Shown here one piece after another: positions 2,232-52,856 of a stretch of 58,405 nucleotides of DNA. Every line of letters begins with the position of its first letter. Within the stretch, counting starts at the first letter, position 1. The position numbers were made by a program, and so were the translations under genes. The notes beneath the pieces were generated by a model. The model saw nothing but the letters and a program-made list of their open reading frames with translations. It searched no databases and had not been told where the DNA came from. Origin of the DNA: an uncultured Eubacteriales bacterium (lineage in GTDB: Bacteria; Bacillota; Clostridia; Oscillospirales; CAG-272); contig CAKRPQ010000003.1 of assembly GCA_934385225.1 (NCBI GenBank), forward strand, positions 1-58,405. The letters are read 5' to 3'.

Positions 2232-3431
2232 TTAATAGTACCACCCCGACGGCAGCTCGTCGAGAGTGCCGAACGTGCAGCCTTTTTCCGTTAAATATTC
2301 AATGGCGTAGGGGAGCATATCCGCCGTCTGCGAGTAGGTTTCGTGCATAAGGACTATGTGCGGATTGTGCTTCATTTTAAGGCTGTTTTCCACAGTTCTT
2401 CGGAAAGTTTCGCGGAGAAATTCGTCCTCCGTCATATCTTTCGGACACTTTTTTATGTAGCAGTCGTTGTTTAAGGCGTTCCAGTCGAAGCCGCGATAGC
2501 CGAGCTCGCATAGAACGTCCTTTATGCCCTCGGTCTTGCAGTTCGTCGAGCCTCCCGGGAAGCGGAAAAGACGTTCGCTCGGAATGTAGCCGAGAATGTC
2601 CTCCGTCGTGCGTTCCCATTCGGCGATCTCCGCGCGGAACGAGTCCGCGTCCGCATAGAGAGCCTTGTAGTCGTGCGTGAACGAGTGACAGCCGAGCGCG
2701 TGGCCGCCCTCCGCCACACGGCGCATAACGTCGGGATTTGCTTTTGCGTTTCTGCCGACCGAGAAGAATGTCGCTTTTATGCCGTATTCGTCGAGCGTTT
2801 TGAGAATACGATCCGTGTTTTTCGGGTTCGGACCGTCGTCAAAGGTCAGATAGACGCGCAGTGACCCTTCTTCCGTTTTGCAGTTTTCGGGATTTGCGCC
2901 GAGGCTCACCCTGAAAGTGATTTTTTTCTCCGACGTCCGCTCGCTCGGAATAAAATTCTCCGAAAATTCGAGCGCGAAAATCTGCCCTTTCGGGAGGTTT
3001 GCATATTCACACGCGATATCGCAAATAAATCCGCTTTCCCGCAGTTCTTCCGCGGGGATTTCGCTCTCGTTCCTGCCTATGTAGCCGTAAACGTCGGCGT
3101 AGAGAGTGTCGGGCGCGTCGGTTTCGCCCGTTTCGGCGGTTTCTCCGCTTGTGTCAGCCGCGGTTTCGGGTGCGGTTTCTGTTTCTGTCTCTGCTTCTGC
3201 CTTTGTTTCCGTTTCCGCTCCCGTTTCCGTCACCGCCGCACTTTCGACCGTAGTTGAGACAGCGGTTGGGGTCGCCGTTTCCGTTTCCGAACAGGTGCTT
3301 TCGGTTGCCTGTGTATGCGTTTCTGTTTCGGTATTGATTTCGGGTGTCGTGTCGGTGTCCGCGTTCCCCGCGCACGCAAAAAAGAACACAGACAGAAATG
3401 CCAAAAGCAAACAAAATGCCGTTTTTTTCAT
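2232..3431 (-). CDS. secreted/lipoprotein polysaccharide deacetylase (CE4, NodB domain) with Thr/Glu-rich linker
   Basis: RVYLTFDDGPNPKNTDRIL and FHSFTHDY-type NodB motifs are present. The start was moved to MKKTAFCLLLAFLSVFFFAC (GGGGAGG RBS 8 nt upstream); the ORF-track start at 3500 is an over-extension. Confidence 0.8.
   Translation of the reverse strand: MKKTAFCLLLAFLSVFFFACAGNADTDTTPEINTETETHTQATESTCSETETATPTAVSTTVESAAVTETGAETETKAEAETETETAPETAADTSGETAETGETDAPDTLYADVYGYIGRNESEIPAEELRESGFICDIACEYANLPKGQIFALEFSENFIPSERTSEKKITFRVSLGANPENCKTEEGSLRVYLTFDDGPNPKNTDRILKTLDEYGIKATFFSVGRNAKANPDVMRRVAEGGHALGCHSFTHDYKALYADADSFRAEIAEWERTTEDILGYIPSERLFRFPGGSTNCKTEGIKDVLCELGYRGFDWNALNNDCYIKKCPKDMTEDEFLRETFRRTVENSLKMKHNPHIVLMHETYSQTADMLPYAIEYLTEKGCTFGTLDELPSGWYY
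3108..3368 (-). repeat. low-complexity Thr/Glu/Ala-rich linker coding region (degenerate short repeats)
   Basis: It encodes ...TETETHTQATES..ETGAETETKAEAETETETAPETAADTSGETAETGETDAPD. The DNA shows reiterated gtttc(c/t)g-type units. Confidence 0.7.
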
Positions 3432-3569
3432 TCCGCCGACCTCCCCGAATGTTTTTTCGGCTTCATTATACACCGTATCCCGACAAAAATCTACCGTCAA
3501 AAAGTAAATAATTGTATTTAAGGGAACAATTTACCCGAAAAGTCGTCGGAATAATCGGAGGACAACGCC

Positions 3570-4145
3570 ATGAAAAAACTTTTTGAATATATATCCGTGT
3601 CCGCACTTGCGCTTGCCGTTGTCTGCGCGCTCGTGTTTTCGTTTGTCTCATGCCTGAGAGCGGGGACTGACGCCGAGACGTGCGACGAAACAGCCGAAAC
3701 GGGCGGTGTAACCTTTCCCGTGTCGGGCGAGGCTGATTTGCGGAAGGATACGGAAAACGAAGTCAGCGTTTTCCCGTATCGCATTGTGAGAACGGGCAGC
3801 GGAGACGAGGATAAAGAATATCCGTATGTTCTGATAATAAAAAACAAGACCGATTTCGACGCGCTTGCAAAGAGGCTCGGCTCTGCATATGCTGAGGAGC
3901 TTTCGGCACTCGGATACGGCGACGCTTTCTTCGCCGAAAACGAGCTTGTAACCGTCGTATTGAGGGAGACAAGTGGGTCGATAGGACACGAGGTTCTCGG
4001 CGCAGACGAAAAGGGCGGGATACGAATAAAACGTATCCTGCCCGAAGAAGGAACGTGCGATATGGCGGAGTGGCACATTTTTGTCGAATTGCCGCTTGAT
4101 TTTTCGGAGCGCGTCCCCGACTTTTACGTCACGTTTTGTGAATAA
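3570..4145 (+). CDS. hypothetical lipoprotein (C-terminal half faintly PrcB-like)
   Basis: The signal peptide has a lipobox-like Cys (ALVFSFVSC). GGAGGA RBS. No catalytic motif was recognised. Confidence 0.6.
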   Translation: MKKLFEYISVSALALAVVCALVFSFVSCLRAGTDAETCDETAETGGVTFPVSGEADLRKDTENEVSVFPYRIVRTGSGDEDKEYPYVLIIKNKTDFDALAKRLGSAYAEELSALGYGDAFFAENELVTVVLRETSGSIGHEVLGADEKGGIRIKRILPEEGTCDMAEWHIFVELPLDFSERVPDFYVTFCE

Positions 4146-6512: not shown

Positions 6513-7565
6513 TTATCCGCCTATGTTGACGGAATGAATGTTCGCCGCACCGTTTGCGAGAACGTTGTCCGTCGGGATGTAAACGGCGTCAACACCTGCC
6601 GCACCGAGCGAAATGAAAGCCGCTTCGATGTCGTTGATGTCGCCGATACCCTTTACTTCGTACTTGTAGCCCTTTGCTTCGCATTCTTTCTTTGCAAGTT
6701 CTATCTGGAATACGGAGTTAGCCTCTGCCGAGGTGTAGAGAAGACCTATCTTGATGTCGTCCTTGCCGAGTAGCTCTGCGATAAGGTCGATCTGATCCGA
6801 AACGGGGTTGATGTCGGAGACGCCCGAAACGTTGCCGCCCGGAACGTCCATACTATCTACAAGACCTGCCGAAACGGGGTCCGTAACGGCGCAGAAGAGA
6901 ACGGGAATTTCGGTCGTTGCCGATGCCGCCGCCTGAGCCGAGGAGGTTGCTATCGCGTAGATGAGGTCAACTTTCTTGCTGACGAATGTTGTTGCTATCG
7001 TTGTGTTGTTCGACTGGTCGCCCGCCGCGTTTTCGCTTAGAATGTTGACTGTCTTGCCCGCTTCTTTCATTCTGACGGAAAGCTCGTCAACGAAGCCCTC
7101 GTTCGACTTGTCGAGAGCGACGTGCTGAACAAGCTGGAGGATACCGACGGTAAAGTCCGCACCGTCCGAGACAATCGCGTCGTTCTGTCTTTCGACGTTC
7201 ATCGAGGACGCGCCGTCACCCGCCTTTGCGAGAACGGATTCGGGGATTGTGAAGCCGATTTCGTCCGCGACGGTCTTGTTTACCGAAAGCGCGGGATTCG
7301 GGTCTGTTGCGACGGGCATTGCGGAAACGTCGGCACCGTCAAGAAGTATATCCGCCGCCATATCGCCCGCCTTAACGCCGAGGTTGTAGTAATCGACGCC
7401 GTAGGTTGCGACGCCGCAGGTGTCGTTCATGCCGATTTCGCCGCAGACGATGGGGAGCTTGTACGCGCCGCCGTCCTCTTTCTTTTCACAGGAAGCCATA
7501 AGCGCGCCTGTGGCGACGAGAAGAGCCGCCATGATAACCGAAAGAATTTTTTTCGTGTTTTTCAT
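6513..7565 (-). CDS. ABC transporter substrate-binding lipoprotein (ABC_sub_bind/PF04392-like)
   Basis: The start was moved to MKNTKKILSVIMAALLVATGALMASC (lipobox, AGGAG RBS). The ORF-track N-terminal 68 aa run through the T-box leader. Confidence 0.8.
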   Translation of the reverse strand: MKNTKKILSVIMAALLVATGALMASCEKKEDGGAYKLPIVCGEIGMNDTCGVATYGVDYYNLGVKAGDMAADILLDGADVSAMPVATDPNPALSVNKTVADEIGFTIPESVLAKAGDGASSMNVERQNDAIVSDGADFTVGILQLVQHVALDKSNEGFVDELSVRMKEAGKTVNILSENAAGDQSNNTTIATTFVSKKVDLIYAIATSSAQAAASATTEIPVLFCAVTDPVSAGLVDSMDVPGGNVSGVSDINPVSDQIDLIAELLGKDDIKIGLLYTSAEANSVFQIELAKKECEAKGYKYEVKGIGDINDIEAAFISLGAAGVDAVYIPTDNVLANGAANIHSVNIGG

Positions 7566-7653
7566 TTTCTTAAATCTCCTGATATAATATATTTCTGCCC
7601 CACGGAACGTGTTCCGATACGGGATTTGCAGTCGAAGTTTAGCGGAAGCGGGT

Positions 7654-7947
7654 AAAAAAACAAAAAATCCCCGTATCCGACACGGATACAGAGACGACTT
7701 TATCGAAAAAATCGTGTTACCACTCTGCTTTGTCCGTTCCCTTGCGGGAAGAACCTCATGGAGCGTCAAATAACGTTCCCGCGATGTTACGGTCGCACCG
7801 TCGCAGCCTACTTTTGTAATTTGTCACAGGTTCGGTGCGAAGCTCCCGAAATGTATTTCCGCTTTCTACTTGCTGCCGTCTTGCAGCGACCGACGGCTCT
7901 CTTGAAGCTTTCGAAAGACGTACTTCTTTTCGATCAACGCTTTTTTA
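7654..7947 (-). promoter_or_regulatory. T-box riboswitch leader, predicted Tyr specifier (TAC)
   Basis: On the minus strand the Stem I elements are a GA/K-turn (GCGTTGAT...), AGAAGTA, an AGAGAG bulge and the distal CCGTCGGTCGCTGCAAGACGG. The specifier loop is GAAA-TAC-A (TAC = 7853-7855). The T-box motif is AGAGTGGTAACACG (7713-7728). The terminator CTCTGTATCCG-tgt-CGGATACGGGG is followed by a T-run (7654-7695). Confidence 0.7.
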
Positions 7948-7954
7948 TGGGAGT

Positions 7955-7983
7955 ATTATATCACCGCAGAATAGCTTTGTCAA
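7955..7983 (-). promoter_or_regulatory. SigA-type promoter of the T-box/ABC operon
   Basis: Minus strand: TTGACA (7978-7983), 17-nt spacer, TATAAT (7955-7960). Confidence 0.75.
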
Positions 7984-8044
7984 GAGTTTTTTTCGATTTT
8001 TTGAAAAAAAGCGACAAAAAACTTGCAGAAAGCTCTTTGTCGCC

Positions 8045-8356
8045 ATAGTTGAAAGTTTTCGGCTCGCCTTATGCGGCGAAAGTTTTCGTCTCGCCTTTTA
8101 CAAAAGGCGAGTGCGGTCAAGGGCGCATAGCCCTTGTCGCTCTCCGCAGAGAGCGAAATGTTCTCGGCACTTTTCTTTTCGCGAAGCCTTTTCTTTTGTG
8201 CCTGCAACACCAAAAGAAAAGGCGCCGATGGGGACTGCACGACTTTACGGCGGCGGGTAGACAATCCCTCAGTCACCTGCGGTGACAGCTCCCTTTACAC
8301 AAGGGAGCCTAAGTCGGGGGTGAAGAAAGCGATAATCCAAGCACAACCGCCCCGAC
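8045..8356 (+). repeat. modular hairpin-rich intergenic repeat, copy A
   Basis: It holds two gaaagttttcg.ctcgcct units and hairpins at 8093-8108, 8119-8137, 8138-8155 and 8186-8223. It then carries the terminal module 8261-8310, identical to 52693-52742. It is collinear with copies B, C and D. Confidence 0.8.
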
Positions 8357-8362
8357 TATTGC

Positions 8363-8390
8363 AAAAAGGCGGGCGAAAGTTTCGCCCGCC
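8363..8390 (-). terminator. rho-independent terminator of the CE4 gene
   Basis: The perfect palindrome ggcgggcgaaa/tttcgcccgcc is followed on the minus strand by TTTTT. Confidence 0.75.
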
Positions 8391-8398
8391 ACAGTAAT

Positions 8399-9205
8399 TC
8401 ACCTCTCCGCAAAATTTACTGTTTTTCCGCCCTCTATGACGAATTCCCTGCCGTTCTCCTTTGCGTAGACCGCTGTCGCCGACGGATTGTAAATCATCGT
8501 TCCGTCCGCCGAAATTTCAAGACGGCGCATCGCGGTCACATAGTCGCAGATTTCGATGTTCGTCGCATACCACACGTCCTCCATGCCGCTCGCCTCGGCG
8601 CAGAATTTTTCGATCCTGTCCCAGTTCCCGTTTCTGTCGAGGTCGTGGCTGTGTCCCCAGACGTACATCAGCGACATACGGTGCGCGCCCGTCAGATTTT
8701 TGAAGTTTTCAAGCAGTTCGAAAAGCGCCGGATTGTCGTGGTGACAGGTCGGATTCCATATCATAAAATCGTCGGGAAGATGGAAGCTCTTTGTCGTGTT
8801 TGTCGTCCTCGAATACTTCATTCCGATCGCGCGCAAAATCTTTACCGCGTCGCCCGTCCATGCGCCGTAAGGGTACGACATTCCGCGTACAATGTACCCG
8901 CACGCCTTTTCGAGCGTTTCCCTGTCGCGGTAGATTTCGTTCACAAATGCCGCCGTCGGTATTCTGTCGGGGTGGAAGTGAGACACCGTGTGACAGGAGA
9001 CCTCGTGATTTCGGTAGAGCGTCGGGATCTCCGCTTCCGTGATCGCCCAGTCGTCGCCGAAACGCCCCGAATTTAAGTGGAATGTGCCTCTTATACCGTA
9101 TCTGTCGAAGATTTCGACGAGCTTTCTGTCGTATTTTGCACCGTCGTCGTAGCTCATCGTCAGAGCTTTCGGCTTGAAATCCTTGAAATAATATTCGATT
9201 TTCAT
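8399..9205 (-). CDS. polysaccharide deacetylase family protein (CE4), cytoplasmic
   Basis: LTMSYDDGAKYDRKLVEIFDRYGIRGTFHLN is a NodB-like N-terminus. There is no signal peptide. It lies 1 nt downstream of the GH26 gene. Confidence 0.75.
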   Translation of the reverse strand: MKIEYYFKDFKPKALTMSYDDGAKYDRKLVEIFDRYGIRGTFHLNSGRFGDDWAITEAEIPTLYRNHEVSCHTVSHFHPDRIPTAAFVNEIYRDRETLEKACGYIVRGMSYPYGAWTGDAVKILRAIGMKYSRTTNTTKSFHLPDDFMIWNPTCHHDNPALFELLENFKNLTGAHRMSLMYVWGHSHDLDRNGNWDRIEKFCAEASGMEDVWYATNIEICDYVTAMRRLEISADGTMIYNPSATAVYAKENGREFVIEGGKTVNFAER

Positions 9206-9206
9206 T

Positions 9207-11468
9207 TTATTTTCCCCTTAATCTTAATCCCGTAAAAATTTGCTTCATATCGTCAAGCGAAAGTATATCGGGCTTCTGCATAAGCTCGTTCAGCTTGCCC
9301 GCTTTCGGGAACGAGTTCTCCGTCGTCCAGGTGAGGACGTAGGTCAGCTTCATGCCCTTATCGTACATCTTGTGAAAGTCCTCGTAGGACGCGATAGAAT
9401 CGAGTTTGCCGCCCGAACCGCCGTATTCCGTAAGCGCAGTCGGTTTTCTGTGATCCATCATCGTGAAATACGCGTTCGAGTCGCTGTCGATTTCAAAATT
9501 TCCGCTTGTGTACCAGTCAAGCCCCGTCATATCGACGTATTCGTCTCCCGGATAGGCGTAATCGACGTCGACGAGACTGCCCGTGTCGTTGTTCGGCGAG
9601 TAGACCCAGATGAGGTTTTTGAGACCGAGTTCATCTACATAATAATTATACACATATTCCCACACGGCATGGAAAGTGCGCGAGTCAATGATGTCGTCGC
9701 CCTGCTTTACGCAGAACCAGAACCAGCCGCCGTTCATTTCATGGAACGGTCGCCAGAGAATCGGAACGTCGTTGCCCATAAGGTCGCGCAAAAACTTTGC
9801 GTTGACGGTAAGTTCCTCCTTGAAGAAAGCGTTCAGCTCGTCGCCGTCCGTTATGAGTCTTTCCCACATATCGTCCATGCCGAGATTCCCGCGGCATGAG
9901 CCGCCCGCGGCACCGAGAGGATTCGCAAAGTGGGACGACGCCGTCACGACACCGCCCGCACGAACGTAGTCGATTACGGACTTCGTGAAATTTAACTTGT
10001 ATTCGTCGCTCGCGTCCATCAGCTGCGCGCCGTAGCAGGCGAGATCCATGCCGATAATCGACGGCTCTTTGCCCGACTCCTTTTTGTAGAATCCGCGCAC
10101 GTCGGAGGCGTATGCGCCGACGTTTATTTCCTCGCCGACCATCAGCTTTCCGTTGTCGTTATAAATGTCGGTGAGGACTTTTAACAGCTCGTCCCTTGTG
10201 TAGCGCACGTCGCCCGTCGGCATTTTGCCCGAAACGAAATCGAGCGTCGTTCCGACGGCGGACGTAAAGACGGTCAGAATTTTGCCGCCCGCGGTTCTGA
10301 ACCTTATGTATCCGCGGAAAACGACGTTTTTTGCGCCTCTTTCGGCGCCCTTTTCGTACCCGACGGCGCTTACGGCAAAGCTCTGAGTGCCGCCATTCGG
10401 CACGCCGAGTGTCTTGCCGATTTTGGAGCCGTCCTCGTAAATTTTTATCCTGTGACTTGCCTTTTCCTCGGTGAAATCGTCAAGGGCGTATTCGGAAAGC
10501 CCCGCAATCACGCCGACCTCCGTTATTTCGCTTCTGTCAAGCCCCGAAAACGAAAATATCGCGCGCAGAGCCGATTTTTCGCCGTCCGCCGCCTCAAATC
10601 CCGAAAAACCGAGAACGGGAAGCGCGTAGAGAGTCGTGTTCCTATAAATGTTCGTGTCGTAGTCGAAGAGGTTTTTGCATTCCATGTCGGTATAGAGCAG
10701 AACCGCCTCGCCCGCTCTTCCCGTTTCGGGTGGCAGACACATTCCGTCCGTGAGTGCGCGGTATTCGTAGATGTTTCCCGACGTGTCAAGGATAGTTACC
10801 GTTACGCTGTCCTCTCTCTCCTCGAACGCAAGCCCGTTTGCATCGGCGAATTTTTTCGCGTTTCCGTCTGCGTCGCCGTAAATTGCGGTAATGCCCGACG
10901 GAAGATCGTCCTTTTTCGGCAGAACGTCCTCGCCTTCGTAGGAATGAGCCTTTGCCGAGAGGCGCAGAGATTTTATCGCCGTTCCCGTAAGAATGTGCTT
11001 GTTTATCCGAGAGACATTGCGCAGATCTGCCATGCCCTCAAATCTGCCGTACTGCCGCACATAGATCGTTTCGAGCGCTTCGCAGCCGTCAAAAGCGTAG
11101 CCGTCTATCTGGTTTACGCCCTTCGTCATCGCGACCTCGGTCAGATTTTTGCAGTCGCGGAAGGCATTGTTCGATATTTTGGAAAATCTGCCTTCGAGAA
11201 CGACTTTTTTTATCTTGTCGTTGTAGTCCGACCACGCGCCGTACTTTTTGTAGTCGTCCTGACCCGTTCCCGTCTCGTTGTAGCCGTTTGTGCGCGACGT
11301 TATCGTCAGAACGCCCGTCTCGGTGTCAAAGGTCCAGTCGTTGTCGACGATAGTAGACCCTTTGTAGTCGTACTTTATCCCGCCCTTTACCGTCTCGGCG
11401 TGCGCGGAGAGTGTAAAAACGGCAAACAGCGCGGCGGTGACAAGCGCGGCTCTTAAAAATCCTTTCAT
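9207..11468 (-). CDS. secreted multidomain protein: BspA-type leucine-rich repeats + unknown middle region + C-terminal GH26 domain
   Basis: The signal peptide is MKGFLRAALVTAALFAVFTLSAHA. The LRR_5-like repeats read ISNNAFRDCKNLTEV..IDGYAFDGCEALETIYV. The C-terminal region has the GH26 motif LWRPFHEMNGGWFWFC. Confidence 0.8.
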   Translation of the reverse strand: MKGFLRAALVTAALFAVFTLSAHAETVKGGIKYDYKGSTIVDNDWTFDTETGVLTITSRTNGYNETGTGQDDYKKYGAWSDYNDKIKKVVLEGRFSKISNNAFRDCKNLTEVAMTKGVNQIDGYAFDGCEALETIYVRQYGRFEGMADLRNVSRINKHILTGTAIKSLRLSAKAHSYEGEDVLPKKDDLPSGITAIYGDADGNAKKFADANGLAFEEREDSVTVTILDTSGNIYEYRALTDGMCLPPETGRAGEAVLLYTDMECKNLFDYDTNIYRNTTLYALPVLGFSGFEAADGEKSALRAIFSFSGLDRSEITEVGVIAGLSEYALDDFTEEKASHRIKIYEDGSKIGKTLGVPNGGTQSFAVSAVGYEKGAERGAKNVVFRGYIRFRTAGGKILTVFTSAVGTTLDFVSGKMPTGDVRYTRDELLKVLTDIYNDNGKLMVGEEINVGAYASDVRGFYKKESGKEPSIIGMDLACYGAQLMDASDEYKLNFTKSVIDYVRAGGVVTASSHFANPLGAAGGSCRGNLGMDDMWERLITDGDELNAFFKEELTVNAKFLRDLMGNDVPILWRPFHEMNGGWFWFCVKQGDDIIDSRTFHAVWEYVYNYYVDELGLKNLIWVYSPNNDTGSLVDVDYAYPGDEYVDMTGLDWYTSGNFEIDSDSNAYFTMMDHRKPTALTEYGGSGGKLDSIASYEDFHKMYDKGMKLTYVLTWTTENSFPKAGKLNELMQKPDILSLDDMKQIFTGLRLRGK

Positions 11469-12764: not shown

Positions 12765-13985
12765 GTGATTAAGATTATTGACAAGATACTGACATGGATA
12801 GGTCAGCTTCTCGGCGCATTCGACGATTTTACGGGCAACTATATGCTCGCGATGCTTATCTTCGCGCTTATAGTCGAAATTCTGCTTCTCCCCTTTGCGA
12901 TAAAACAGCAGAAAAATATGATAAAACAGGCAAAGCTCCGCCCGAAGGAAATGGCGATCCGAGGTAAGTACAAGGGTCGCGACGACGCCGCAACAAAACA
13001 GAAAATGCAGCAGGAAATCACGGAATTTTATCAGAAGGAGAACTTCAACCCGATGGGCGGCTGTCTCCCGCTTCTGCTCCAAATGCCGATAATTCTTGCT
13101 CTCTATCAGATCATCATCAATCCGCTTAAATACGTTGTCGGGTTCAGCACCGATCAGGTGAAGCAGATACTCGAAGTCATCACGCAGAACGTCGATGCGA
13201 CAGTCGCAAAGACGCTTAACGCAACGCAGACGATACCCCTTATCGACCAGATAAGAGAGATAGGCGTCGAGGCGTTTTCGGGTATTGCGGGATTTGCCGA
13301 TAAGGTGCCGACAGTCGATGCTCTTCCGAGCTTTTCGGCGTTCGGCGTGAACCTCGGTATCGTTCCGAGAGACGGTAAGCCTCTTTACCTCTGGCTGATC
13401 GTCCCCGTTCTCGTTTACGCGTTCCAGCTCGTTTCGACGAAGCTCATGCGTAAGTTCACCTATCAGGCACCGTCCGCACAGGACGCGAATATGGGTTGCT
13501 CCAATAACGTTATGGACTACACCATGCCGCTTATGAGTGCGTATTTCGCATTCGTTCTTCCCGCCGCCGTCGGCGTTTACTGGATATTCAAGAATATCAT
13601 CACCTTTGTCAAGCAGGTCGTTCTCGCAAAGCTTATGCCTATGCCCGTCTTTACCGACGCGGATTATAAGGCTGCCGAAAAGGAAATGAACGCGAAAGCA
13701 CCGAAAACGGGCGGAAACGTTAAGGTAGGTTCAAGCGGAAAAGTCGTTCGTTCCCTGCACCACATAGACGATGAAGACTATGAGGACACGAGAGAAGCCG
13801 CGCTCGCGCGTAAAAAGGCACTCGAAGAGGCGGAGGAAAAGGAAAAAGCCGAAAAGGAAACAAAGAAAAAACTCTCCTCGGCTCTCATGAAGGACGAAAG
13901 CGACAAAAAGACGCCGAAAAAGGCGGATAATGATAAAAAGGACGATTCCGCCGAAGTCAAGAAAGACAATAACGAAGAAAAATAA
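12765..13985 (+). CDS. yidC: YidC/Oxa1-family membrane insertase with Lys/Glu-rich C-terminal tail
   Basis: The motifs are LLPFAIKQQKNM and NPMGGCLPLLLQMPIILALYQ. The position after yidD fits. The GTG start is tentative. Confidence 0.85.
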   Translation: MIKIIDKILTWIGQLLGAFDDFTGNYMLAMLIFALIVEILLLPFAIKQQKNMIKQAKLRPKEMAIRGKYKGRDDAATKQKMQQEITEFYQKENFNPMGGCLPLLLQMPIILALYQIIINPLKYVVGFSTDQVKQILEVITQNVDATVAKTLNATQTIPLIDQIREIGVEAFSGIAGFADKVPTVDALPSFSAFGVNLGIVPRDGKPLYLWLIVPVLVYAFQLVSTKLMRKFTYQAPSAQDANMGCSNNVMDYTMPLMSAYFAFVLPAAVGVYWIFKNIITFVKQVVLAKLMPMPVFTDADYKAAEKEMNAKAPKTGGNVKVGSSGKVVRSLHHIDDEDYEDTREAALARKKALEEAEEKEKAEKETKKKLSSALMKDESDKKTPKKADNDKKDDSAEVKKDNNEEK

Positions 13986-14005
13986 TTAAAACGGAGTTTA
14001 CTATC

Positions 14006-14668
14006 GTGAAAAAGGAAATAACCGTAAGTGCAAAGACAGTAGATGAAGCACTTGAAAAAGCAGTTTCGGAGCTCGGCGCACCTTCAAAGGACGCGCTCGG
14101 TTATACCGTTCTCGAAGAGGCGAAAAAGGGTCTTTTCGGAATAGGCGGTTCGCCCGCAAAGGTGCTTGTGACTTATGAAACGCCGAGCGTCGGCGCAGAT
14201 GCCGCTCTCGACTTCATAAACGACCTCGTTTCGAATATGAAGCTCGACGCAACCGTCGATATGAAGGACGGCGAGGCCGGTGACCACGTTATCAGCATAA
14301 ACGGCGAAAGCGCGGGCATTCTTATCGGACACCACGGCGATACGCTCGATTCGATACAGTACCTCGCAAGCCTTGCCGCAAACAAAAAGGTCGGCGGCGA
14401 AAAGCAGGACTATGTGAAGATTACGATCGACATCGAAAATTACCGCGCAAAGAGAGAGGAGTCTCTCCGTAAGCTCGCTCATAATATGGCATCGAAGGTG
14501 CTTAAATATAAGAAGAGCGTAATGCTTGAACCGATGAACCCCTACGAGAGACGCATAATCCACTCGGAGGTTCAGGGTATAGAGGGCGTTTCGACAAACT
14601 CTATCGGCGCGGAGAATAACCGCAGAATTGTCATCTATCTTTCGGATAAGAAGAGCGACGAGGAATAA
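14006..14668 (+). CDS. jag: Jag/KhpB RNA-binding protein (Jag_N, KH, R3H)
   Basis: The N-terminal Jag_N-like segment is followed by the R3H motif LEPMNPYERRIIHSEV. It shows conserved synteny after yidC. Confidence 0.85.
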   Translation: MKKEITVSAKTVDEALEKAVSELGAPSKDALGYTVLEEAKKGLFGIGGSPAKVLVTYETPSVGADAALDFINDLVSNMKLDATVDMKDGEAGDHVISINGESAGILIGHHGDTLDSIQYLASLAANKKVGGEKQDYVKITIDIENYRAKREESLRKLAHNMASKVLKYKKSVMLEPMNPYERRIIHSEVQGIEGVSTNSIGAENNRRIVIYLSDKKSDEE

Positions 14669-16182: not shown

Positions 16183-16630
16183 GAACCCTTCCGCCGCTCG
16201 CTGCGCCCGCGCCTTTTGTGGAAGTTTTCGTCTCGCGCATTGTCGAAAGTTTTGGGTCTCGCCTTTGTTAAAAGTTTTTGGCTCGCCTTTGTTGAAAGTT
16301 TTCGGCTCGCCTTTGTTGAAAGTTTTGATCAACCTTTTACAAAAGTTTAGGTCAAGCCTTTTCAAAGGCTTGCGTGAGCCGCCGACGTCGGCGGTCGCCG
16401 TCCGCAGACGGCGAAATGATCTCGGCGTTTCTTTTTGTTAACTTTTTCTTTGCGCCTGTGGCATCAAAGAAAAAGTGGAGAACGGGACTGAATATCTTCA
16501 CGGCTGCAAAGAGGTGAACAACCCTACCGTCACTCGCTGCGCTCGTGCCACCTCCCCTTACCCACGAGGCAAGGGGAGGCAAAGGTGGAGGTGAAGTCTA
16601 ATAAAATCCAAGTATAAACTGCCCCGCCCG
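16183..16630 (+). repeat. modular hairpin-rich intergenic repeat, copy B (most complete)
   Basis: It starts 10 nt after the mnmE stop. It contains a partial terminal module (16184-16213), a tandem ~24-bp array, and the 16-bp palindrome ccgccgacgtcggcgg (16379-16394). Hairpins lie at 16396-16413, 16442-16475 and 16551-16579. The 3' tail resembles that of copy A. Confidence 0.8.
16218..16374 (+). repeat. degenerate tandem array (~24-bp period, about 6 units) inside copy B
   Basis: Units such as gaaagttttcggctcgcctttgtt follow each other head-to-tail, and two adjacent units are nearly identical. Copies A, C and D carry 2 such units and copy C' one. Confidence 0.8.
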
Positions 16631-16762
16631 AATTGTTACAAAACTTTCTTTCATTATTATATACCGCCATATATCCTGCCCCGTAAAAAGTCCCGAAAAT
16701 GACCGTTTATAATATTAAACAGGGTTTAATATTGCGCTATAATTACAGGTTGAAAAAACCTC

Positions 16763-20422: not shown

Positions 20423-20467
20423 TAGAACAACAAAATAAACGCAAAGAAGTAATTCTGCGGTTATACG

Positions 20468-20502
20468 GGGCAGTCCCTTCGGGGACTGCCCTTGTTGTTT
20501 TT
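20468..20502 (+). terminator. rho-independent terminator of the S-layer gene
   Basis: A 10-bp GC-rich stem (ggcagtccc.../...gggactgcc) closes a UUCG-type loop and is followed by ttgttgttttt. Confidence 0.85.
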
Positions 20503-20520
20503 GGGGGAAAGGGGGTGTAT

Positions 20521-20853
20521 GCCTTTTGCCGAAAGTTTTCGTCTCGCTGTTTTGTGAAAGTTTTGATCAAACTTTTTCTTGACTTCGTGAGCAGCACGAA
20601 TGTCTGGTTGCAGGTTTCCAAAGGCGGAGCCTTGGTCGCCGCTCGCAAGCGGCGAAACATTCCCGGCGCTTCTTTTTCCGCAAAGCGAGAAGCCGTAGGC
20701 TTCTATTTTTTCATTGCGCCTGTTGCATCAAGAAAAAGGGCGTTAATGGGGACTGCATATCTTCACCTCGGCGGAAAGATAAACAACCCTTCCGTCGGAG
20801 GGCTTGCGCACCTCCGCCACCTCCCCTTACACAGGGGAGGCTAAAAAGAGAGA
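20521..20853 (+). repeat. modular hairpin-rich intergenic repeat, copy C
   Basis: It is collinear with copies B and D. The stretch 20784-20852 matches 25797-25865 at 68 of 69 positions. Confidence 0.8.
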
Positions 20854-21140
20854 GCGCCTGTGGCATCAAAGAAAAAGCGGAGAACGGTGATGAATATCTT
20901 CACGGCTTAAAAGGCAAATGTAGCCGTGAAGCCGTGCAGTTCCCATTAACGCCTTTTCTTTTGGTGTTGCAGGCACAAAAGATAAAGGCAGAGAAAGCCT
21001 ACGGCTTCTAGCGAAAAGAAAAGTGCCGATAAGGAGTTTCGCCGTCTGCGGACGGCGACCGCCGACGTCGGCGGCTCACTGCACGCAGACATTCGTGCTC
21101 CGCACGAAGTCAAGAAAAAGGCGAGACGAAAACTTTCACC
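20854..21140 (-). repeat. partial forward module (20854-20907) plus inverted copy C' (20922-21140) of the same repeat family
   Basis: The perfect 10-bp inverted pair cttcacggct (20898-20907) / agccgtgaag (20922-20931) marks the centre. The reverse complement of 20922-21140 is collinear with copy C (for example ctttttcttgacttcgtg...agcacgaatgtctg). Confidence 0.75.
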
Positions 21141-21191: not shown

Positions 21192-21220
21192 TTGACAAAC
21201 GGAGGAAAATCGGCTATTAT
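21192..21220 (+). promoter_or_regulatory. SigA-type promoter of the AraC-family gene
   Basis: TTGACA (21192-21197), 17-nt spacer, TATTAT (21215-21220). Confidence 0.6.
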
Positions 21221-22095: not shown

Positions 22096-22108
22096 TTTAA
22101 TATAAAAA

Positions 22109-22145
22109 GGGACTGCCCCAAAGCATTGCGCTTTGGGGCAGTCCC
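22109..22145. terminator. bidirectional rho-independent terminator
   Basis: A 16-bp stem gggactgccccaaagc / gctttggggcagtccc lies between convergent genes and is flanked by A/T runs. Confidence 0.85.
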
Positions 22146-22161
22146 TGTATTATTTTATTTG

Positions 22162-25044: not shown

Positions 25045-25557
25045 TTATTTTCTGCCCTTAACGATGTCGGCGACAGACTTGTCGGAGTCGATGGCGAGGG
25101 CAAAGACGCAGAAGAAGATGCCGCCGATGAAGCCCTGCATGAGGTTGGACGGAACTTCGGAAAGAGGCGCGACGAGGTTGCCCGCGAGGATAGCACCGCC
25201 GAGCCAGTAGCCGGCAGCGTTGATGAGAATAGCGCAGACGAGGGCGATAATGTTGCGGACTGAAAGGATTTTCGCGCTCTTGTTTGTGAACGCGAGGGTC
25301 ATAAGAGCCTTTATGATGAATGTTATCGGCATCCAGGAGACGTAACCGCCGGCAAGGTCGGCGAGGCCCGCGCCGAGACCCGCGGCGATGGCGGAATAGG
25401 GGAGCGGAAGAATTGCGGCGGCGAGACAGACGGCGGAATCGCCGAGATGGACGTAGCCTGTTGCCGTCGGGAGTTTCAGAAATGATGTCAGGACGAAAAC
25501 GAGCGCAGCGCAGAGCGCGGTTCTTGTTAAAGTGAGGATAGTTTTGTTTGTTTTCAT
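25045..25557 (-). CDS. small polytopic membrane protein, ECF-transporter S-component-like (substrate unknown)
   Basis: It is 170 aa with ~5-6 TM segments and the motif LPTATGYVHLGDSAV. There are no ECF A/T genes in the window. Confidence 0.45.
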   Translation of the reverse strand: MKTNKTILTLTRTALCAALVFVLTSFLKLPTATGYVHLGDSAVCLAAAILPLPYSAIAAGLGAGLADLAGGYVSWMPITFIIKALMTLAFTNKSAKILSVRNIIALVCAILINAAGYWLGGAILAGNLVAPLSEVPSNLMQGFIGGIFFCVFALAIDSDKSVADIVKGRK

Positions 25558-25592: not shown

Positions 25593-25936
25593 AAAGTTTA
25601 GGCTAAACCGATAATTAAAGTTTCGGTCAAGCCTTTTCAAAGGCTTGCGGTTTCCAAAGGCGGAGCCTTGGTCGCTCGTTGAGGCGAGCGAAATAATCTC
25701 GGCGCTTTCTTTTTGTTAACTTTTTCTTTGCGCCTGTCGCATCAAAGAAAAAGTGGAAAACGGTGCTGCACGACTTCACGTCGGCGGATAGGTGACCAAC
25801 CCTTCCGTCGGAGGGCTTGCGCACCTCCGCCACCTCCCCTTGCACAGGGGAGGCTAAAAAGAGAGTGCCTGCAACACCAAAAGAAAAGGCGTCAGACGGT
25901 GCCGCACGACATCACGGCTGTAAAGAGGTGAACTTT
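25593..25936 (+). repeat. modular hairpin-rich intergenic repeat, copy D plus partial second module
   Basis: It is collinear with copy B, sharing an identical 32-mer (16428-16459 = 25706-25737), and with copy C. The tail 25865-25891 is identical to 8198-8224 and to the reverse complement of 20950-20976. Confidence 0.8.
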
Positions 25937-26617
25937 TCACCCGCCGTTTTTGAACGCTTCAAGCTCCTTTTCAAACAGTGAAAAGGGGTAGACGCCGCTC
26001 GGAATTTCACACACCTCAAAATGCCTGCCGTCAAAGTCAAATTCAAGCCCCGCGGAGAACAGCGCGATCCCCGCATGACCCGCATCCGCGCGCTTTATGC
26101 GGCTTCCGTACTTCCCGTCAAAGACAACGGGCATTCCGCGCGACGCGAACTGCGCCCGTATCTGGTGCGTTCTGCCCGTCATAAGCGTGACCGAAACGAG
26201 CGTAAATTCGCCGCTTTTTCCGAGAACGGTGTAGGCAAGCGCCGCTTTTTTGACGCCCGCGCGCTCGCGGTCACAGACGAAACTCTTCCGCTTCGCACGG
26301 TCGAAGAATAATAAATCCTCGAAAACGCCCGCGTTTTCCGTCGGACACCCCGTGATAACGGCGAGGTAACGTTTTTTGCATTTCGTTTTGTCCGAAATTA
26401 TCGCCGAAAGCTCCGCCGCCGCACGCTTTGAACGCGCGAGAACGATAAGACCGCCCGTAACGACATCGAGCCTGTTCACGGGATAAAATTCCCCGCCGTA
26501 TTTCTCCTCGCAGAGCGAAATCACATCGTTTTTTTCGGTACTTTTTTCCGATGCGACACCGAAATATTTTATCGGTATGACGAATTTGTCGTTTTCTGTC
26601 GCTATTTTCATATTCAT
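25937..26617 (-). CDS. RluA-family pseudouridine synthase (short, no S4 domain)
   Basis: The motifs are PVNRLDVVTGGLIVLARS and TLMTGRTHQIRAQFA. The start was chosen at MNMKIATEN (weak RBS); the upstream part of the ORF-track call overlaps the AraC gene in another frame. Confidence 0.75.
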   Translation of the reverse strand: MNMKIATENDKFVIPIKYFGVASEKSTEKNDVISLCEEKYGGEFYPVNRLDVVTGGLIVLARSKRAAAELSAIISDKTKCKKRYLAVITGCPTENAGVFEDLLFFDRAKRKSFVCDRERAGVKKAALAYTVLGKSGEFTLVSVTLMTGRTHQIRAQFASRGMPVVFDGKYGSRIKRADAGHAGIALFSAGLEFDFDGRHFEVCEIPSGVYPFSLFEKELEAFKNGG

Positions 26618-26637
26618 ATTCAAATTCAAACTTAAAC

Positions 26638-27528
26638 TCAATCCGACGGCGTGACGCGCCCCGAAACGGGCTTCTTCACGCTGCCCGCTTTTTTCGCCTT
26701 TTCGCGGTAGTCCGTCGCCGTCATGCCGAAATATTTTTTGAACATCTTCATAAAATGTATCTCGTCGCGGTAGCCTGCCATTGCAGCCGCCTCTTTTATA
26801 CTCAGATTCGTCTCCGAGAGCAGCTTCGCGGCGGTGTTCATTTTGAGATCCGTCAGCTTTTTCATCGGCGACATACCGTATTTTTCGCCGAATATCTTGC
26901 ATAGCGTCGAATGACTTGTGTAAAGTGCCATGCAGAGCGATTCTATCGTAAAATCGGGGTTCGACGAGTTCACTGATATATAGCGCAGAGCCTGCTCGGC
27001 AAGCTCCGAACGACCCGCCGACGTCGTTTCGCCTCCGACAATTTCGCCGACGACGGAGAAAAGCGCCGATTTTGCCTTGTATTCGTTGACGTTGCCGCTT
27101 GCCATCGACGATATTACGGACGTTACAACGTCCTCTATAAATTCGGGACTTCGCGGCGTTATGATCGGGTGTTCAAGGTCGAAGCCCATTTTGAGACCGA
27201 GCTTTGCCGCCTCCGCGCCGCTGAAATAAAACCAGAAATACCGCCATTTTTCGCCGCCCGCCGCGTCCTCCGCGGGATAGTACATTATCTCCTTGTTCGG
27301 CGGCAGAAAGAAGAGCTGCTTTTCGCGCACGTCAAACTCGTTTCCCGCAAGAAAGAGCTTTCCGCTGCCTTTGAGGACGAAATGCAGGGTGTAGTCGGGC
27401 TGAATGCGCAGATATTTTATCGGTTCGATAAATTCAAAGTCGTTGTAGCCGACGTTATGTATGAAAAGATCCTTTTCGCCGCCGTAGGCAAAGACTCTTA
27501 ACATCGACGGATTTCTTCGCGTTTCCAT
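26638..27528 (-). CDS. AraC-family transcriptional regulator, divergent from the mdh-hdr-frd operon
   Basis: The C-terminal HTH reads LCMALYTSHSTLCKIFGEKYGMSPMKKLTDLKMNTAAKLL..IKEAAAMAGYRDEIHFMKMFKKYFGMTATDYR. The start is at METRRNP (GGAGGGAACGCC RBS). Confidence 0.85.
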   Translation of the reverse strand: METRRNPSMLRVFAYGGEKDLFIHNVGYNDFEFIEPIKYLRIQPDYTLHFVLKGSGKLFLAGNEFDVREKQLFFLPPNKEIMYYPAEDAAGGEKWRYFWFYFSGAEAAKLGLKMGFDLEHPIITPRSPEFIEDVVTSVISSMASGNVNEYKAKSALFSVVGEIVGGETTSAGRSELAEQALRYISVNSSNPDFTIESLCMALYTSHSTLCKIFGEKYGMSPMKKLTDLKMNTAAKLLSETNLSIKEAAAMAGYRDEIHFMKMFKKYFGMTATDYREKAKKAGSVKKPVSGRVTPSD

Positions 27529-52289: not shown

Positions 52290-52294
52290 AAAAA

Positions 52295-52742
52295 AGCCTC
52301 CCTTGTGTAAAGGGAGGTGGCACGGCTTGCCGTGACGGAGGGATTGTATTTGCAAAGAAAACATAATAAAGATATTGTTCCGACAGCAAAGATTTTGAGA
52401 AAGAATATGACAAAGGAAGAAAATCATCTTTGGTATGATTTTTTGCGTACATACCCTGTTCGTTTTTCCCGACAAAAGGTTCTCGGCAGATATATTGCGG
52501 ATTTTTACTGCGCCGAGGCGAGGCTTGTCATTGAACTTGACGGATCGGGGCATTACACGGCAGAAGGAAAGCGGCATGATGAGATACGCAGGCTTTTCTT
52601 GAAGGCTATGGAATTTCGGTTGTCAGAATATCGAACACGGCAATCAACAACAACTTTCGAGGTGTATGCGGTTATATAGACCGTATTGTTGAACAATCCC
52701 TCAGTCACCTGCGGTGACAGCTCCCTTTACACAAGGGAGCCT
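52295..52742 (+). mobile_element. DUF559-gene cassette bounded by ~50-bp imperfect terminal inverted repeats (putative small selfish element)
   Basis: The left arm is 52295-52347 and the right arm 52693-52742. The reverse complement of the right arm aligns with the left arm: aggctcccttgtgtaaagggag... vs agcctcccttgtgtaaagggag..., both ending ...gagggattgt. Each arm folds into two hairpins. Confidence 0.65.
52317..52717 (+). pseudogene. DUF559 (Vsr-like endonuclease domain) gene, apparently frameshifted
   Basis: Frame A encodes ...AKILRKNMTKEENHLWYDFLRTYPVRFSRQKVLGRYIADFYCAEARLVIELDGSGHYTAEGKRHDEIRR. The family-typical continuation AFLEGYGISVVRISNTAINNNFRGVCGYI... is in the +2 frame from ~52592 and ends at TGA 52715-52717. 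Confidence 0.7.
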
Positions 52743-52856
52743 TTTTGTTTTGCCGATTTCACATTTTGTGCAAAATGACGATTTTTCGGTTTTGCAAAAA
52801 AAGTGTTGACAAATATAGTGTTATAATGTATTATAATATACAGGGGGGTATGGATT

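Follow-up and report, generated by a model that had tools for sequence, protein, structure and literature searches.

Repeated sequences around rpmH-mnmE

The window analysed here, a stretch of 58,405 nucleotides (nt) of contig CAKRPQ010000003.1 (assembly GCA_934385225.1) of an uncultured Eubacteriales bacterium, carries the genes rpmH-rnpA-yidC-jag-mnmE, a T-box leader and a group of hairpin-rich intergenic repeats that are the subject of this work. The nearest MnmE protein outside this species is only 70% identical, indicating an isolated, uncultured lineage of the Clostridia type. Contigs compared with the window carry L-numbers (L002, L014 and so on) and homologous proteins carry P-numbers.

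A sequence-only reading of the window had described one modular repeat in five collinear copies (A, B, C, C' and D), with further copies of its terminal module alone on both sides of a DUF559 gene. A repeat search and a blastn self-comparison found all five copies in these places: collinear similarity extends over 8040-8310 (A), 16283-16564 (B), 20521-20853 (C), 20922-21140 (C', reverse) and 25617-25865 (D), with E-values of the self-matches down to 1e-48. The solo terminal modules are also present, as inverted repeats. The shared blocks counted by hand proved exact: a 32-mer at 16428-16459 recurs at 25706-25737, a 27-mer at 8198-8224 recurs at 25865-25891 and, as reverse complement, at 20950-20976, and 20784-20852 matches 25797-25865 at 68 of 69 positions. 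In addition, 16374-16416 of copy B is 100% complementary to 21037-21079. The tandem units of about 24 bp were recovered by Tandem Repeats Finder (16210-16326, period 24, 4.8 copies), the array of copy B beginning at 16210. The limits of the copies needed correction: A and B reach further to the right by a module that they have in common (8311-8365 and 16582-16645), and two 5'-truncated copies, C2 (20854-20913) and D2 (25865-25936), had been merged into C and D.

The window thus has seven core copies, and more than 20 are found at other loci. No open reading frame (ORF) is common to the copies, as the sequence-only reading had stated; the ORFs 7835-8260 and 20515-20844 are each specific to a single copy. 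A degenerate 40-bit pattern of two adjoining segments, modules iv and v, has seven matches in the window (0.00 expected from 100 shuffles), and these matches, like all core copies, are confined to the first 26 kb.

Could the copies be segmental duplications or assembly artefacts of one origin-proximal region? The core copies of this species are all confined to some 30 kb around rpmH-mnmE-parB, and contigs break at them. However, the same copies were recovered in independent metagenome assemblies from other samples (L002-L010, L058), the copies have unrelated flanks, at least six other bins contain related copies at different places such as purA, asnA and a recG-like gene, and one insertion is polymorphic between strains (L014/L057, see below). 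Of the human-gut metagenome contigs compared with the window, one shows 100% identity along the 21.4 kb compared and the others 99.5-99.99%. Numerous short contigs terminate within the repeats, which is the behaviour of genuine repeats and not of a collapse artefact. An origin by artefact or segmental duplication is therefore highly improbable. A foldback chimera typical of assembly error was seen at L008 1-794, where an inverted copy of window 13728-14521 is joined to 14524 onward; it is unrelated to the repeats.

Composition and distribution of the repeats

The idea of one modular element did not hold: at least three repeat families, namely the core, the double-hairpin terminal module and the stem-loop module vii, contribute members that are nested or placed side by side in a mosaic. 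The core (230-300 nt) consists of one or more AAAGTTTTCG units, three GC-rich hairpins, GAAAT..CTCGGCG, the A/T-rich module iv and a spacer (module v) that ends in CTTCAC. The terminal module is a double hairpin of 50-55 nt. Module vii is a stem-loop of about 50-95 nt, which in the window stands 3' of A and B and in L036, L050 and the strain L058 lies inside hairpin 3 of a core.

Relatives of the core were sought with the module iv-v pattern in one scan of a genome collection and one scan of metagenomes. Further copies were found in at least six other Clostridia bins and on metagenome contigs: five named bins (titled Eubacteriales, 'uncultured Anaerotruncus', Clostridia and Lachnospiraceae) and several metagenome contigs have true relatives, an additional copy lies on a Ruminococcaceae-type contig, and three further matches are chance matches in coding sequence. 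At loci outside this species, the core is mostly found without a terminal module. The vicinity of the window copies to rpmH-mnmE-parB had raised the possibility of an origin-specific function; this was rejected, because the copies of other species adjoin purA, asnA and a recG-like gene. Rfam at gathering thresholds matched only the T-box and a tRNA in the window and none of the repeats, and scans of three repeat regions with permissive E-values gave chance-level matches only. Copy B had no blastn match to plasmids and phages, and the pattern scan of viral contigs had none either.

Fold of the core

Module iv had been read as a plain A/T-rich hairpin. Its stem (S2) is present but belongs to a larger arrangement: the covariation described here suggests an H-type pseudoknot, in which loop 1 (Y1) appears to lie in the major groove of stem 2 and to form 8-10 consecutive triples. 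In an alignment of 22 copies (A2), hairpin 3, the 4-bp stem P1 and the 11-bp stem S2 have 94.7% of cells paired, compared with 52-63% for slid partners, and ten pairs are altered on both sides. P1 is paired in 100% of cases, including a switch from GC to AU or the reverse. RNAalifold independently recovers hairpins 2, 3 and S2, with 16 of 24 pairs compensated. This fits the earlier suggestion of structured RNA or DNA sites and provides the covariation that had been proposed as its check. Both strands fold well (z = -4.1 and -4.4).

The segments follow each other in the order P1a, Y1, linker, Y2, P1b, 8-nt loop and R. The pyrimidine run Y1 sits between the 5' strand of P1 and the linker and is a mirror repeat of Y2, the 5' arm of S2. 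When Y1 is placed parallel to the purine arm R, T stands opposite A and C opposite G, and the two tracts both begin at the P1/S2 junction. This agreement holds at 65 of 65 positions in seven distinct classes from 17 copies; none of 1854 derangements reaches the same score, and the antiparallel control is worse. Classes (R / Y1) include AAAAGAAAAG / TTTTCTTTTC, AAAGAAAAA / TTTCTTTTT, AAGAAAAAGG / TTCTTTTTCC, AAAAGAAA / TTTTCTTT and AAGAGAAAA / TTCTCTTTT; in an eighth class, from L031, each of the three tracts has one base more (R AAAGAAAAAA, Y2 CTTTTTTCTTT, Y1 TTTCTTTTTT). Exact three-block motifs occur three times in the window and not once in 100 local shuffles. A loop running parallel to the purine strand in the major groove is the geometry of Hoogsteen U.A-U and C+.G-C triples (PMC13541005).

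The linker varies between 5 and 52 nt and at times has an inserted hairpin, a tolerance that is expected of a capping loop; the second connector (P1b and loop) has 13 nt. The three blocks of 8-10 nt on one strand, a 5' Hoogsteen pyrimidine block, a Watson-Crick pyrimidine block and a 3' purine block, are those of a class IV intrastrand triplex, while the linker range and the second connector do not fit the loops of 1-6 nt that the ITxF search prescribes (PMC4666352). Covarying P1, a closing pair or hairpin in the linker and three-way covariation of Y1, Y2 and R are also the architecture of the element for nuclear expression (ENE) with its A-tract. The covariation is a direct observation, and from it we infer that the core would fold in this way.

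Alternatively, module iv could be a plain A/T-rich hairpin without any triple helix, with Y1 kept for protein binding, as a transcription signal or through shared descent. There are just eight sequence classes, all copies are related, and the T/A runs are of low complexity, so that most of the 65 matches are T opposite A; moreover, one chimeric copy persists in a strain (L058). However, the informative C/G markers, which by class are at positions 3, 4, 5, 3+5 or 9-10, always coincide in the parallel anchored register, the extra base of L031 is in all three tracts together, and the register begins exactly at the P1/S2 junction, as pseudoknot geometry requires. Watson-Crick pairing of Y1 with R is impossible in the asymmetric classes, and we know of no slippage or template-switch process that serves as a mutational source of mirror repeats. 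A plain hairpin is thus quite improbable as an explanation, and it is unlikely, if slightly less so, that no triplex forms in vivo.

Insertion with duplication of a complete hairpin

In L014, a core separates purA from a convergent gene, with a copy of a 35-nt terminator palindrome on either side of it: the insert has 238 nt (3381-3618) and the duplicated hairpins (3346-3380 and 3619-3653) differ by one loop change. The sister strain L057, which has an identical PurA protein and flanks of 96.4% and 94.6% identity, has an empty site with a single palindrome and an 87-nt spacer, and the two BLAST segments of the comparison overlap by 36 nt in L057. The species L051-L056 are also empty at this site; a related species with an empty site has a PurA of 90% identity. 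These comparisons demonstrate that the core is mobile and that its insertion duplicates a complete hairpin. The earlier suspicion of a proliferating non-autonomous element is therefore supported by just the kind of presence/absence polymorphism with target duplication (here 35-36 bp) that was to be looked for among relatives. A duplication as long as the whole palindrome suggests that each of the two strands was cut, or took part in a strand transfer, at a different foot of it.

Copy B of the window has a 30-nt direct repeat on both sides of its core (16184-16213 / 16520-16549, 25 of 30 positions identical), which corresponds to the start of a terminal module; the simplest reading would be insertion of the core next to a solo terminal module that lay downstream of mnmE. 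The core of L013 is flanked by two diverged versions of a single hairpin. [quoted passage not shown]

Variation between strains

Copies of the repeats recombine with each other. A strain that is 98.4% identical to the window (L058) has different interiors at the sites A, B and D: B has an A-like interior and an extra module vii, the linker of A is 19 nt longer, and D has a module-vii insertion and a chimeric junction. At site D of L045, an inverted partner stands in place of the terminal module of the window copy, giving a different right half. Among near-identical strains, the few single-nucleotide polymorphisms cluster in copy B. For module vii, insertion with hairpin duplication was considered (L036, L050, L058); the junctions look recombinational.

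In L002, gidB-parB-parA-parB is joined to the window inside copy A (at 8188), and a full copy of its own follows parB; the junction stems either from real recombination of repeat copies or from chimeric scaffolding at the repeat. The parB block (L002 1-3700) replaces the ABC-transporter/T-box side of the window. L043 has the same parB-downstream copy with a different triplex class.

The head-to-head pair of L011 and L019 has 1-7 differences per 100 nt, compared with 14-19 in the flanking genes, which suggests strong constraint or recent recombination or transfer. Between L011 6500-7100 and L019 1300-1900, identity is 93-99% in the element pair and in the first ~100 nt of the gene downstream of it, and ~86% in the flanking genes.

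The terminal module and the DUF559 element

A ~450-bp mini-gene element, whose arms (82% identical over 57 nt) surround a DUF559 ORF, has the terminal module as its ~55-nt terminal inverted repeat. The DUF559 gene of the window (52317-52719) is frameshifted near 52590, probably by loss of one base in a G run; read in the second frame it ends in ...IDRIVEQSLSHLR, with the stop at 52719 inside the right repeat. After repair of the frame, the ORF matches Pfam DUF559 (PF04480) with 90.1 bits (cut-off 20.6, E = 1e-25). The window copy is either a pseudogene or contains a homopolymer assembly error; an intact protein of 127 amino acids (P0001, 98% identical) is encoded on L020 from another sample. 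The only Pfam matches of the bracketed gene are DUF559, DUF2726 and MTES_1575, and the HUH Y1 transposase of repetitive extragenic palindromic (REP) sequences and bacterial interspersed mosaic elements (BIMEs) is not among them. The nearest solved structure is 3HRL, an 'endonuclease-like protein'.

There are more than 7,900 DUF559 homologues, most on contigs shorter than 1.5 kb. They terminate in ...EQSLSQLR and a stop codon, encoded by the repeat, and some gene calls continue into repeats (KPSLPCVKGGG...). At loci of two other species, the DUF559 gene is bracketed by the same inverted double-hairpin repeats of 51-53 nt, with a solo repeat at a distance of 1 kb in L031. There (2949-4017), a solo copy of the left repeat (3963-4017) lies ~570 nt past the right repeat and is oriented as the left one. 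The right and the solo repeat enclose an ORF of 110 amino acids without Pfam match, and the repeats may bracket extra cargo there. In one species (L021, L022 and L024, 3395-3650), the spacer 3' of the DUF559 element varies by an indel of ~167 nt and a replaced segment of ~50 nt. The repeats were also considered as relics of a degenerate DUF559 gene; this was rejected, as the overlap with the terminal module is limited to the final ~25 nt of the gene.

On the model of RAYT and REP, the DUF559 nuclease might move its own mini-element and, in trans, the core. The gene is bracketed by the 55-nt double-hairpin repeats in three species, the terminal module follows the core in copies A-D, L015, L046 and L050, and the core and the DUF559 element are ~600 nt apart in L031; furthermore, the protein has a Vsr/PD-(D/E)XK endonuclease fold with 3HRL as nearest structure, and cuts at the base of a cruciform would yield a duplication of palindrome length. 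Set against this are the cores of Anaerotruncus-like and other bins, which lack the module and have no DUF559 gene in the 8-kb pieces examined: a search around the cores of other species revealed DUF559 genes or terminal modules only in L031 and on window-like contigs. Each exact DUF559 protein is at one stable locus per species, neither an empty site nor a target duplication was found for a DUF559 element, and the gene of the window itself is frameshifted. The literature on DUF559 holds no biochemical data on the family and no report of mobility or flanking repeats. A role of the nuclease as mover of both its own element and the core is doubtful.

Model and alternatives

The explanation that we consider probable is a mobile mosaic with a triplex-folding core. 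Small non-autonomous mobile elements would nest beside each other's hairpins and then swap segments by recombination. The core, with neither an ORF nor terminal inverted repeats, would integrate beside an existing palindrome, either a terminator or the hairpin of another repeat, and duplicate it completely; this would take two strand cleavages or transfers, one on each strand and each at a different foot of the hairpin. The terminal module would be separate from the core, occurring solo and serving as its landing site. The plus strand would be selected for a single-strand fold with 1-6 AAAGTTTTCG units, the three GC-rich hairpins and the H-type pseudoknot, whose 8-10 consecutive U.A-U or T.A-T triples, with one or two C+.G-C, would form a class IV pyrimidine-motif intrastrand triplex. 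This fold would act in RNA, usually as the 3' part of the transcript of the upstream gene, as a nuclease-resistant plug similar to an ENE with its A-tract.

For the triplex itself, we lean narrowly towards an action in RNA. The pyrimidine motif (class IV, Hoyne/Maher) is the sole type of intrastrand triplex that also forms in RNA (PMC4666352). Non-Watson-Crick pairs are T.G in 11 cases and C.A in 3, the whole element is structured, and at independent sites 11 copies have their 5' end facing the 3' end of a co-directional gene compared with 4 facing a divergent gene, a weak excess of sense-oriented copies downstream of genes. A promoter/terminator scan found no promoter common to the copies; its matches are signals of genes nearby (the T-box promoter at 7983-7955, the promoter of an AraC-type gene at 21192-21220 and the terminators at 8368-8390 and 20467-20492). 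GC skew, examined for origin placement and replication-strand bias, was uninformative over 58 kb.

The main alternative, possible but clearly less likely, is that the fold acts as single-stranded DNA during mobilisation, or in general works as DNA, as an intrastrand triplex of the PIT/BoxC/TMECO type, which would make an RNA role unnecessary. A pyrimidine-motif triplex on the plus strand and a purine-motif triplex on the minus strand, together with cruciforms, could then be a substrate for mobilisation or cause polymerase stalling and rearrangement. This would agree with the nature of the core as a DNA insertion with structure-defined target duplication, with copies in both orientations relative to transcription (A and D antisense to their neighbours), with the lack of a promoter common to the copies and with the mirror repeats, the classical requirement of H-DNA; the coincidence of copies with strain rearrangements parallels the instability at TMECO loci (PMC4666352). 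However, H-DNA requires the Y1/Y2 mirror alone, and the conserved same-strand purine arm, the covarying P1 and the three upstream hairpins, which also covary, point to a single-strand fold of the whole element; the RNA-compatible motif, the T.G excess and the sense-oriented copies also argue against DNA.

Several observations weigh against the mobile mosaic with a triplex that acts in RNA. The only clean comparison of an empty with a filled site is for one insertion, in a related genome and outside the window, and bracketing direct repeats, sought around every copy, were found for L014 and B and not at A, C and D. The core has no linked transposase, reverse transcriptase or other candidate enzyme; its link to DUF559 is one of adjacency. 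Conservation of the L011/L019 pair beyond its flanks fits a host function or recent transfer and not selfish decay. The triplex is derived from about 22 related copies in eight classes, with perhaps 4-5 independent three-way changes, and C, C', L050 and one copy of L002 (L002-F) require a bulged A or mismatches in Y2. Site D of L058 violates the Y1-R rule, with Y1 and Y2 from one class and R from another; the class switch falls exactly where homology to D of the window resumes. The orientation trend of 11 to 4 is not significant, and copies A and D are antisense to neighbouring genes.

Coordinates and neighbouring features

Table 1. Coordinates in the window of the repeat copies, their segments and the DUF559 element
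Feature	Position	Strand	Remarks
Copy A core	8045-8260	+	between T-box promoter (minus) and terminator of ORF 8399-9205 (minus); includes predicted triplex pseudoknot, then spacer terminating in CTTTACGG
Copy A, two AAAGTTTTCG units	8051-8098	+	
Copy A hairpins 1 / 2 / 3	8090-8111 / 8118-8136 / 8137-8156	+	
Copy A predicted triplex pseudoknot	8166-8222	+	P1a GGCAC 8166-8170; Y1 TTTTCTTTTC 8171-8180; linker 8181-8186; Y2 CCTTTTCTTTT 8187-8197; G 8198; P1b TGCC 8199-8202; loop 8203-8210; C 8211; R AAAAGAAAAGG 8212-8222
Copy A terminal module	8261-8310	+	ACAATCCCT then two hairpins; 100% identical over 50 nt to 52693-52742
Copy A module vii	8311-8365	+	long-loop stem-loop AAGTCGGGGGTGAAG..CCAAG..CCCCGACT; common to copy B
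Copy B left 30-nt direct repeat	16184-16213	+	AACCCTTCCGCCGCTCGCTGCGCCCGCGCC; resembles first hairpin of terminal module; putative target duplication
Copy B array of ~24-nt units	16210-16372	+	about six GAAAGTTTTCGGCTCGCCTTTGTT units; ends in hairpin 1 (16353-16372)
Copy B hairpin 2	16379-16394	+	CCGCCGACGTCGGCGG
Copy B hairpin 3	16395-16414	+	TCGCCGTC-CGCA-GACGGCGA
Copy B predicted triplex pseudoknot	16424-16475	+	P1a GGCG 16424-16427; Y1 TTTCTTTTT 16428-16436; linker GTTAA; Y2 CTTTTTCTTT 16442-16451; G 16452; P1b CGCC 16453-16456; loop TGTGGCAT; C 16465; R AAAGAAAAAG 16466-16475
Copy B spacer (module v)	16476-16519	+	ends in CTTCACGGC, the right end of the core
Copy B terminal module	16520-16579	+	right 30-nt direct repeat 16520-16549; hairpin CCTCCCCTT..AAGGGGAGG 16551-16579
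Copy B module vii	16582-16645	+	
Copy C, core and terminal module	20521-20853	+	terminal module 20773-20842
Copy C predicted triplex pseudoknot	20665-20740	+	Y1 TTCTTTTTCC 20670-20679; R AAGAAAAAGGG 20730-20740
Copy C Y2	20706-20715	+	TTTTTTCATT with bulged A; preceded by 26-nt linker containing its own hairpin
Copy C2, 5'-truncated	20854-20913	+	loop, R tract and spacer only; directly adjoins C', head-to-head
Copy C', inverted core without terminal module	20922-21140	-	predicted triplex pseudoknot 20952-21027
Copy D, core and terminal module	25593-25865	+	terminal module 25797-25855; predicted triplex pseudoknot 25701-25753
Copy D2, 5'-truncated	25865-25936	+	ends at stop codon of ORF 25937-26902 (minus)
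DUF559 mini-element	52291-52746	+	left inverted repeat 52291-52347; right inverted repeat 52693-52746, then T-run

Directly to the left of copy A is the T-box leader (7687-7983, minus strand, 105 bits) with a perfect TTGACA-17-TATAAT promoter at 7983-7955; it regulates the ORF 6513-7769. A weak promoter-like site (TTGAAA-18-AATTAT, 25611-25640, minus strand) is contained in the left end of copy D and directed towards a ribU-like gene (25045-25557), for which no other promoter would fit in; an FMN riboswitch was not found. The strong terminator hairpins at 20467-20492 and 22108-22146 share GGGGCAGTCCC / GGGACTGCCCC, and the spacer of the core also has GGGGACTGC; this may be another small hairpin family or coincidence. 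Inverted similar stretches at 1589-1781 and 9591-9768 (73 nt with 78% and 46 nt with 83% identity), within the ORFs 1128-2189 and 9207-11468, are probably paralogous coding segments.

Comparison with known systems

Like BIME/REP sequences and the pneumococcal BOX, RUP and SPRITE elements, the repeats are short intergenic hairpin modules of variable order and number that vary between strains; BOX, RUP and SPRITE elements also insert into each other and bunch together (PMC10969869). The sequence-only reading had pointed to BOX, which is apt as an analogy: the likeness to boxA-boxB(n)-boxC is one of organisation only. No match in Rfam or elsewhere suggests a sequence relationship of these elements to the repeats of the window, whose units are longer, have the predicted triplex pseudoknot, reside in uncultured gut Clostridia and have a target duplication that spans a whole palindrome. 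Metagenome assemblies break at the repeats, which also mark points of rearrangement close to the gene cluster of the replication origin; knowing them aids binning and strain comparison.

With MITEs the core has in common a size below ~500 bp, the lack of coding capacity, multiple copies and an insertion polymorphism with flanking direct duplication; truncated and chimeric copies are found as well. It differs from them in that no terminal inverted repeats were detected on the core and no cognate insertion sequence (IS) is known: there is no transposase near the core copies, and the DUF559 element shares with them only the module that follows the core. Its duplication is structure-defined (30-36 bp) and not of a fixed 2-10 bp. 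Integration of CRISPR spacers and casposons, which is of the staggered Cas1 type, duplicates a whole, often palindromic repeat of ~28-37 bp because the strand transfers fall at both of its borders. The analogy to the core is one of outcome only: there is no cas1 gene or CRISPR array nearby, and the insert here is a structured element of 238 nt. That a terminator palindrome is duplicated as a whole suggests that DNA structure guides the chemistry of integration.

The REP-associated tyrosine transposase RAYT (TnpA-REP) is encoded by a small nuclease-type gene that is bracketed by inverted hairpin repeats, which also occur solo in the genome. The DUF559 element likewise consists of a single small gene between inverted hairpin repeats that also occur solo. 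In contrast to RAYT, its protein is Vsr-like with a PD-(D/E)XK fold and no HUH Y1 transposase, the repeat overlaps the 3' codons of the gene, and mobilisation is hypothetical. DUF559, a very large family of unknown function, in this way gains a hypothesis that can be tested.

Earlier, no described repeat class had been recognised in the window. This is correct as far as Rfam is concerned, but the intrastrand-triplex repeats PIT, BoxC and TMECO have been described (Hoyne et al. 2000; Holder et al. 2015, PMC4666352), and the class is thus not wholly without precedent. These are also repeated bacterial intergenic sequences with three same-strand blocks for an intramolecular triplex, at loci that are rearranged between strains (PMC4666352). 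TMECO is a G/C-rich purine-motif element of ~40 nt (class I/II) that is incapable of forming in RNA, and both BoxC and TMECO are treated as DNA structures linked to instability (PMC4666352). In contrast to TMECO, the motif here is an A/T-rich pyrimidine motif of class IV, with the 5' Hoogsteen strand followed by Y and then R. In contrast to all three, a 4-5 bp stem and 8 further nt make up the second 'loop', which exceeds the ITxF limit of 1-6 nt and would give a pseudoknot, the triplex is supported by three-way covariation, and it is embedded in a mobile element of 250 nt.

In architecture, the predicted fold matches the ENE with A-tract, known from PAN RNA of Kaposi's sarcoma-associated herpesvirus (KSHV), from MALAT1/NEAT1 and from the dENEs of plant and fungal transposons. 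The predicted pseudoknot has the same order of segments: lower stem, U-rich Hoogsteen strand, upper loop or stem, U-rich Watson-Crick strand, lower stem, short loop and genomically encoded A-rich tract. As in MALAT1, there would be ~9-10 stacked U.A-U triples with embedded C+.G-C, and a mobile element is the carrier of the structure, as is the case for the transposon ENEs (PMC13541005). The triplex H-type pseudoknots of telomerase RNA, SAM-II and preQ1-II are grouped with the ENE as similar in architecture. Differences to the ENE are the bacterial host, the A-tract, which is internal and 25-45 nt from the end of the core, and the missing Rfam match; the core is known from DNA alone.

Long natural RNA triple helices have so far been found in viruses, mammalian long non-coding RNAs and plant and fungal transposons, with short ones in riboswitches and introns of prokaryotes; a 2026 review lists riboswitches and group II introns as the only prokaryotic RNA triplexes and no prokaryotic ENE with A-tract (PMC13541005). 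If the fold forms in RNA, bacterial transcripts would gain their first long stacked major-groove triple helix, with evidence that is purely three-way covariation. The wider proposal, a bacterial counterpart of ENE and A-tract that protects RNA and is carried by a mobile element with a previously undescribed, structure-guided integration at hairpin feet, possibly performed by DUF559, is speculative and, taken as a whole, rather unlikely. New is the combination of two features that have not previously been described together: 8-10 stacked triples in a pseudoknot, supported by covariation, and a target duplication that comprises a whole palindrome.

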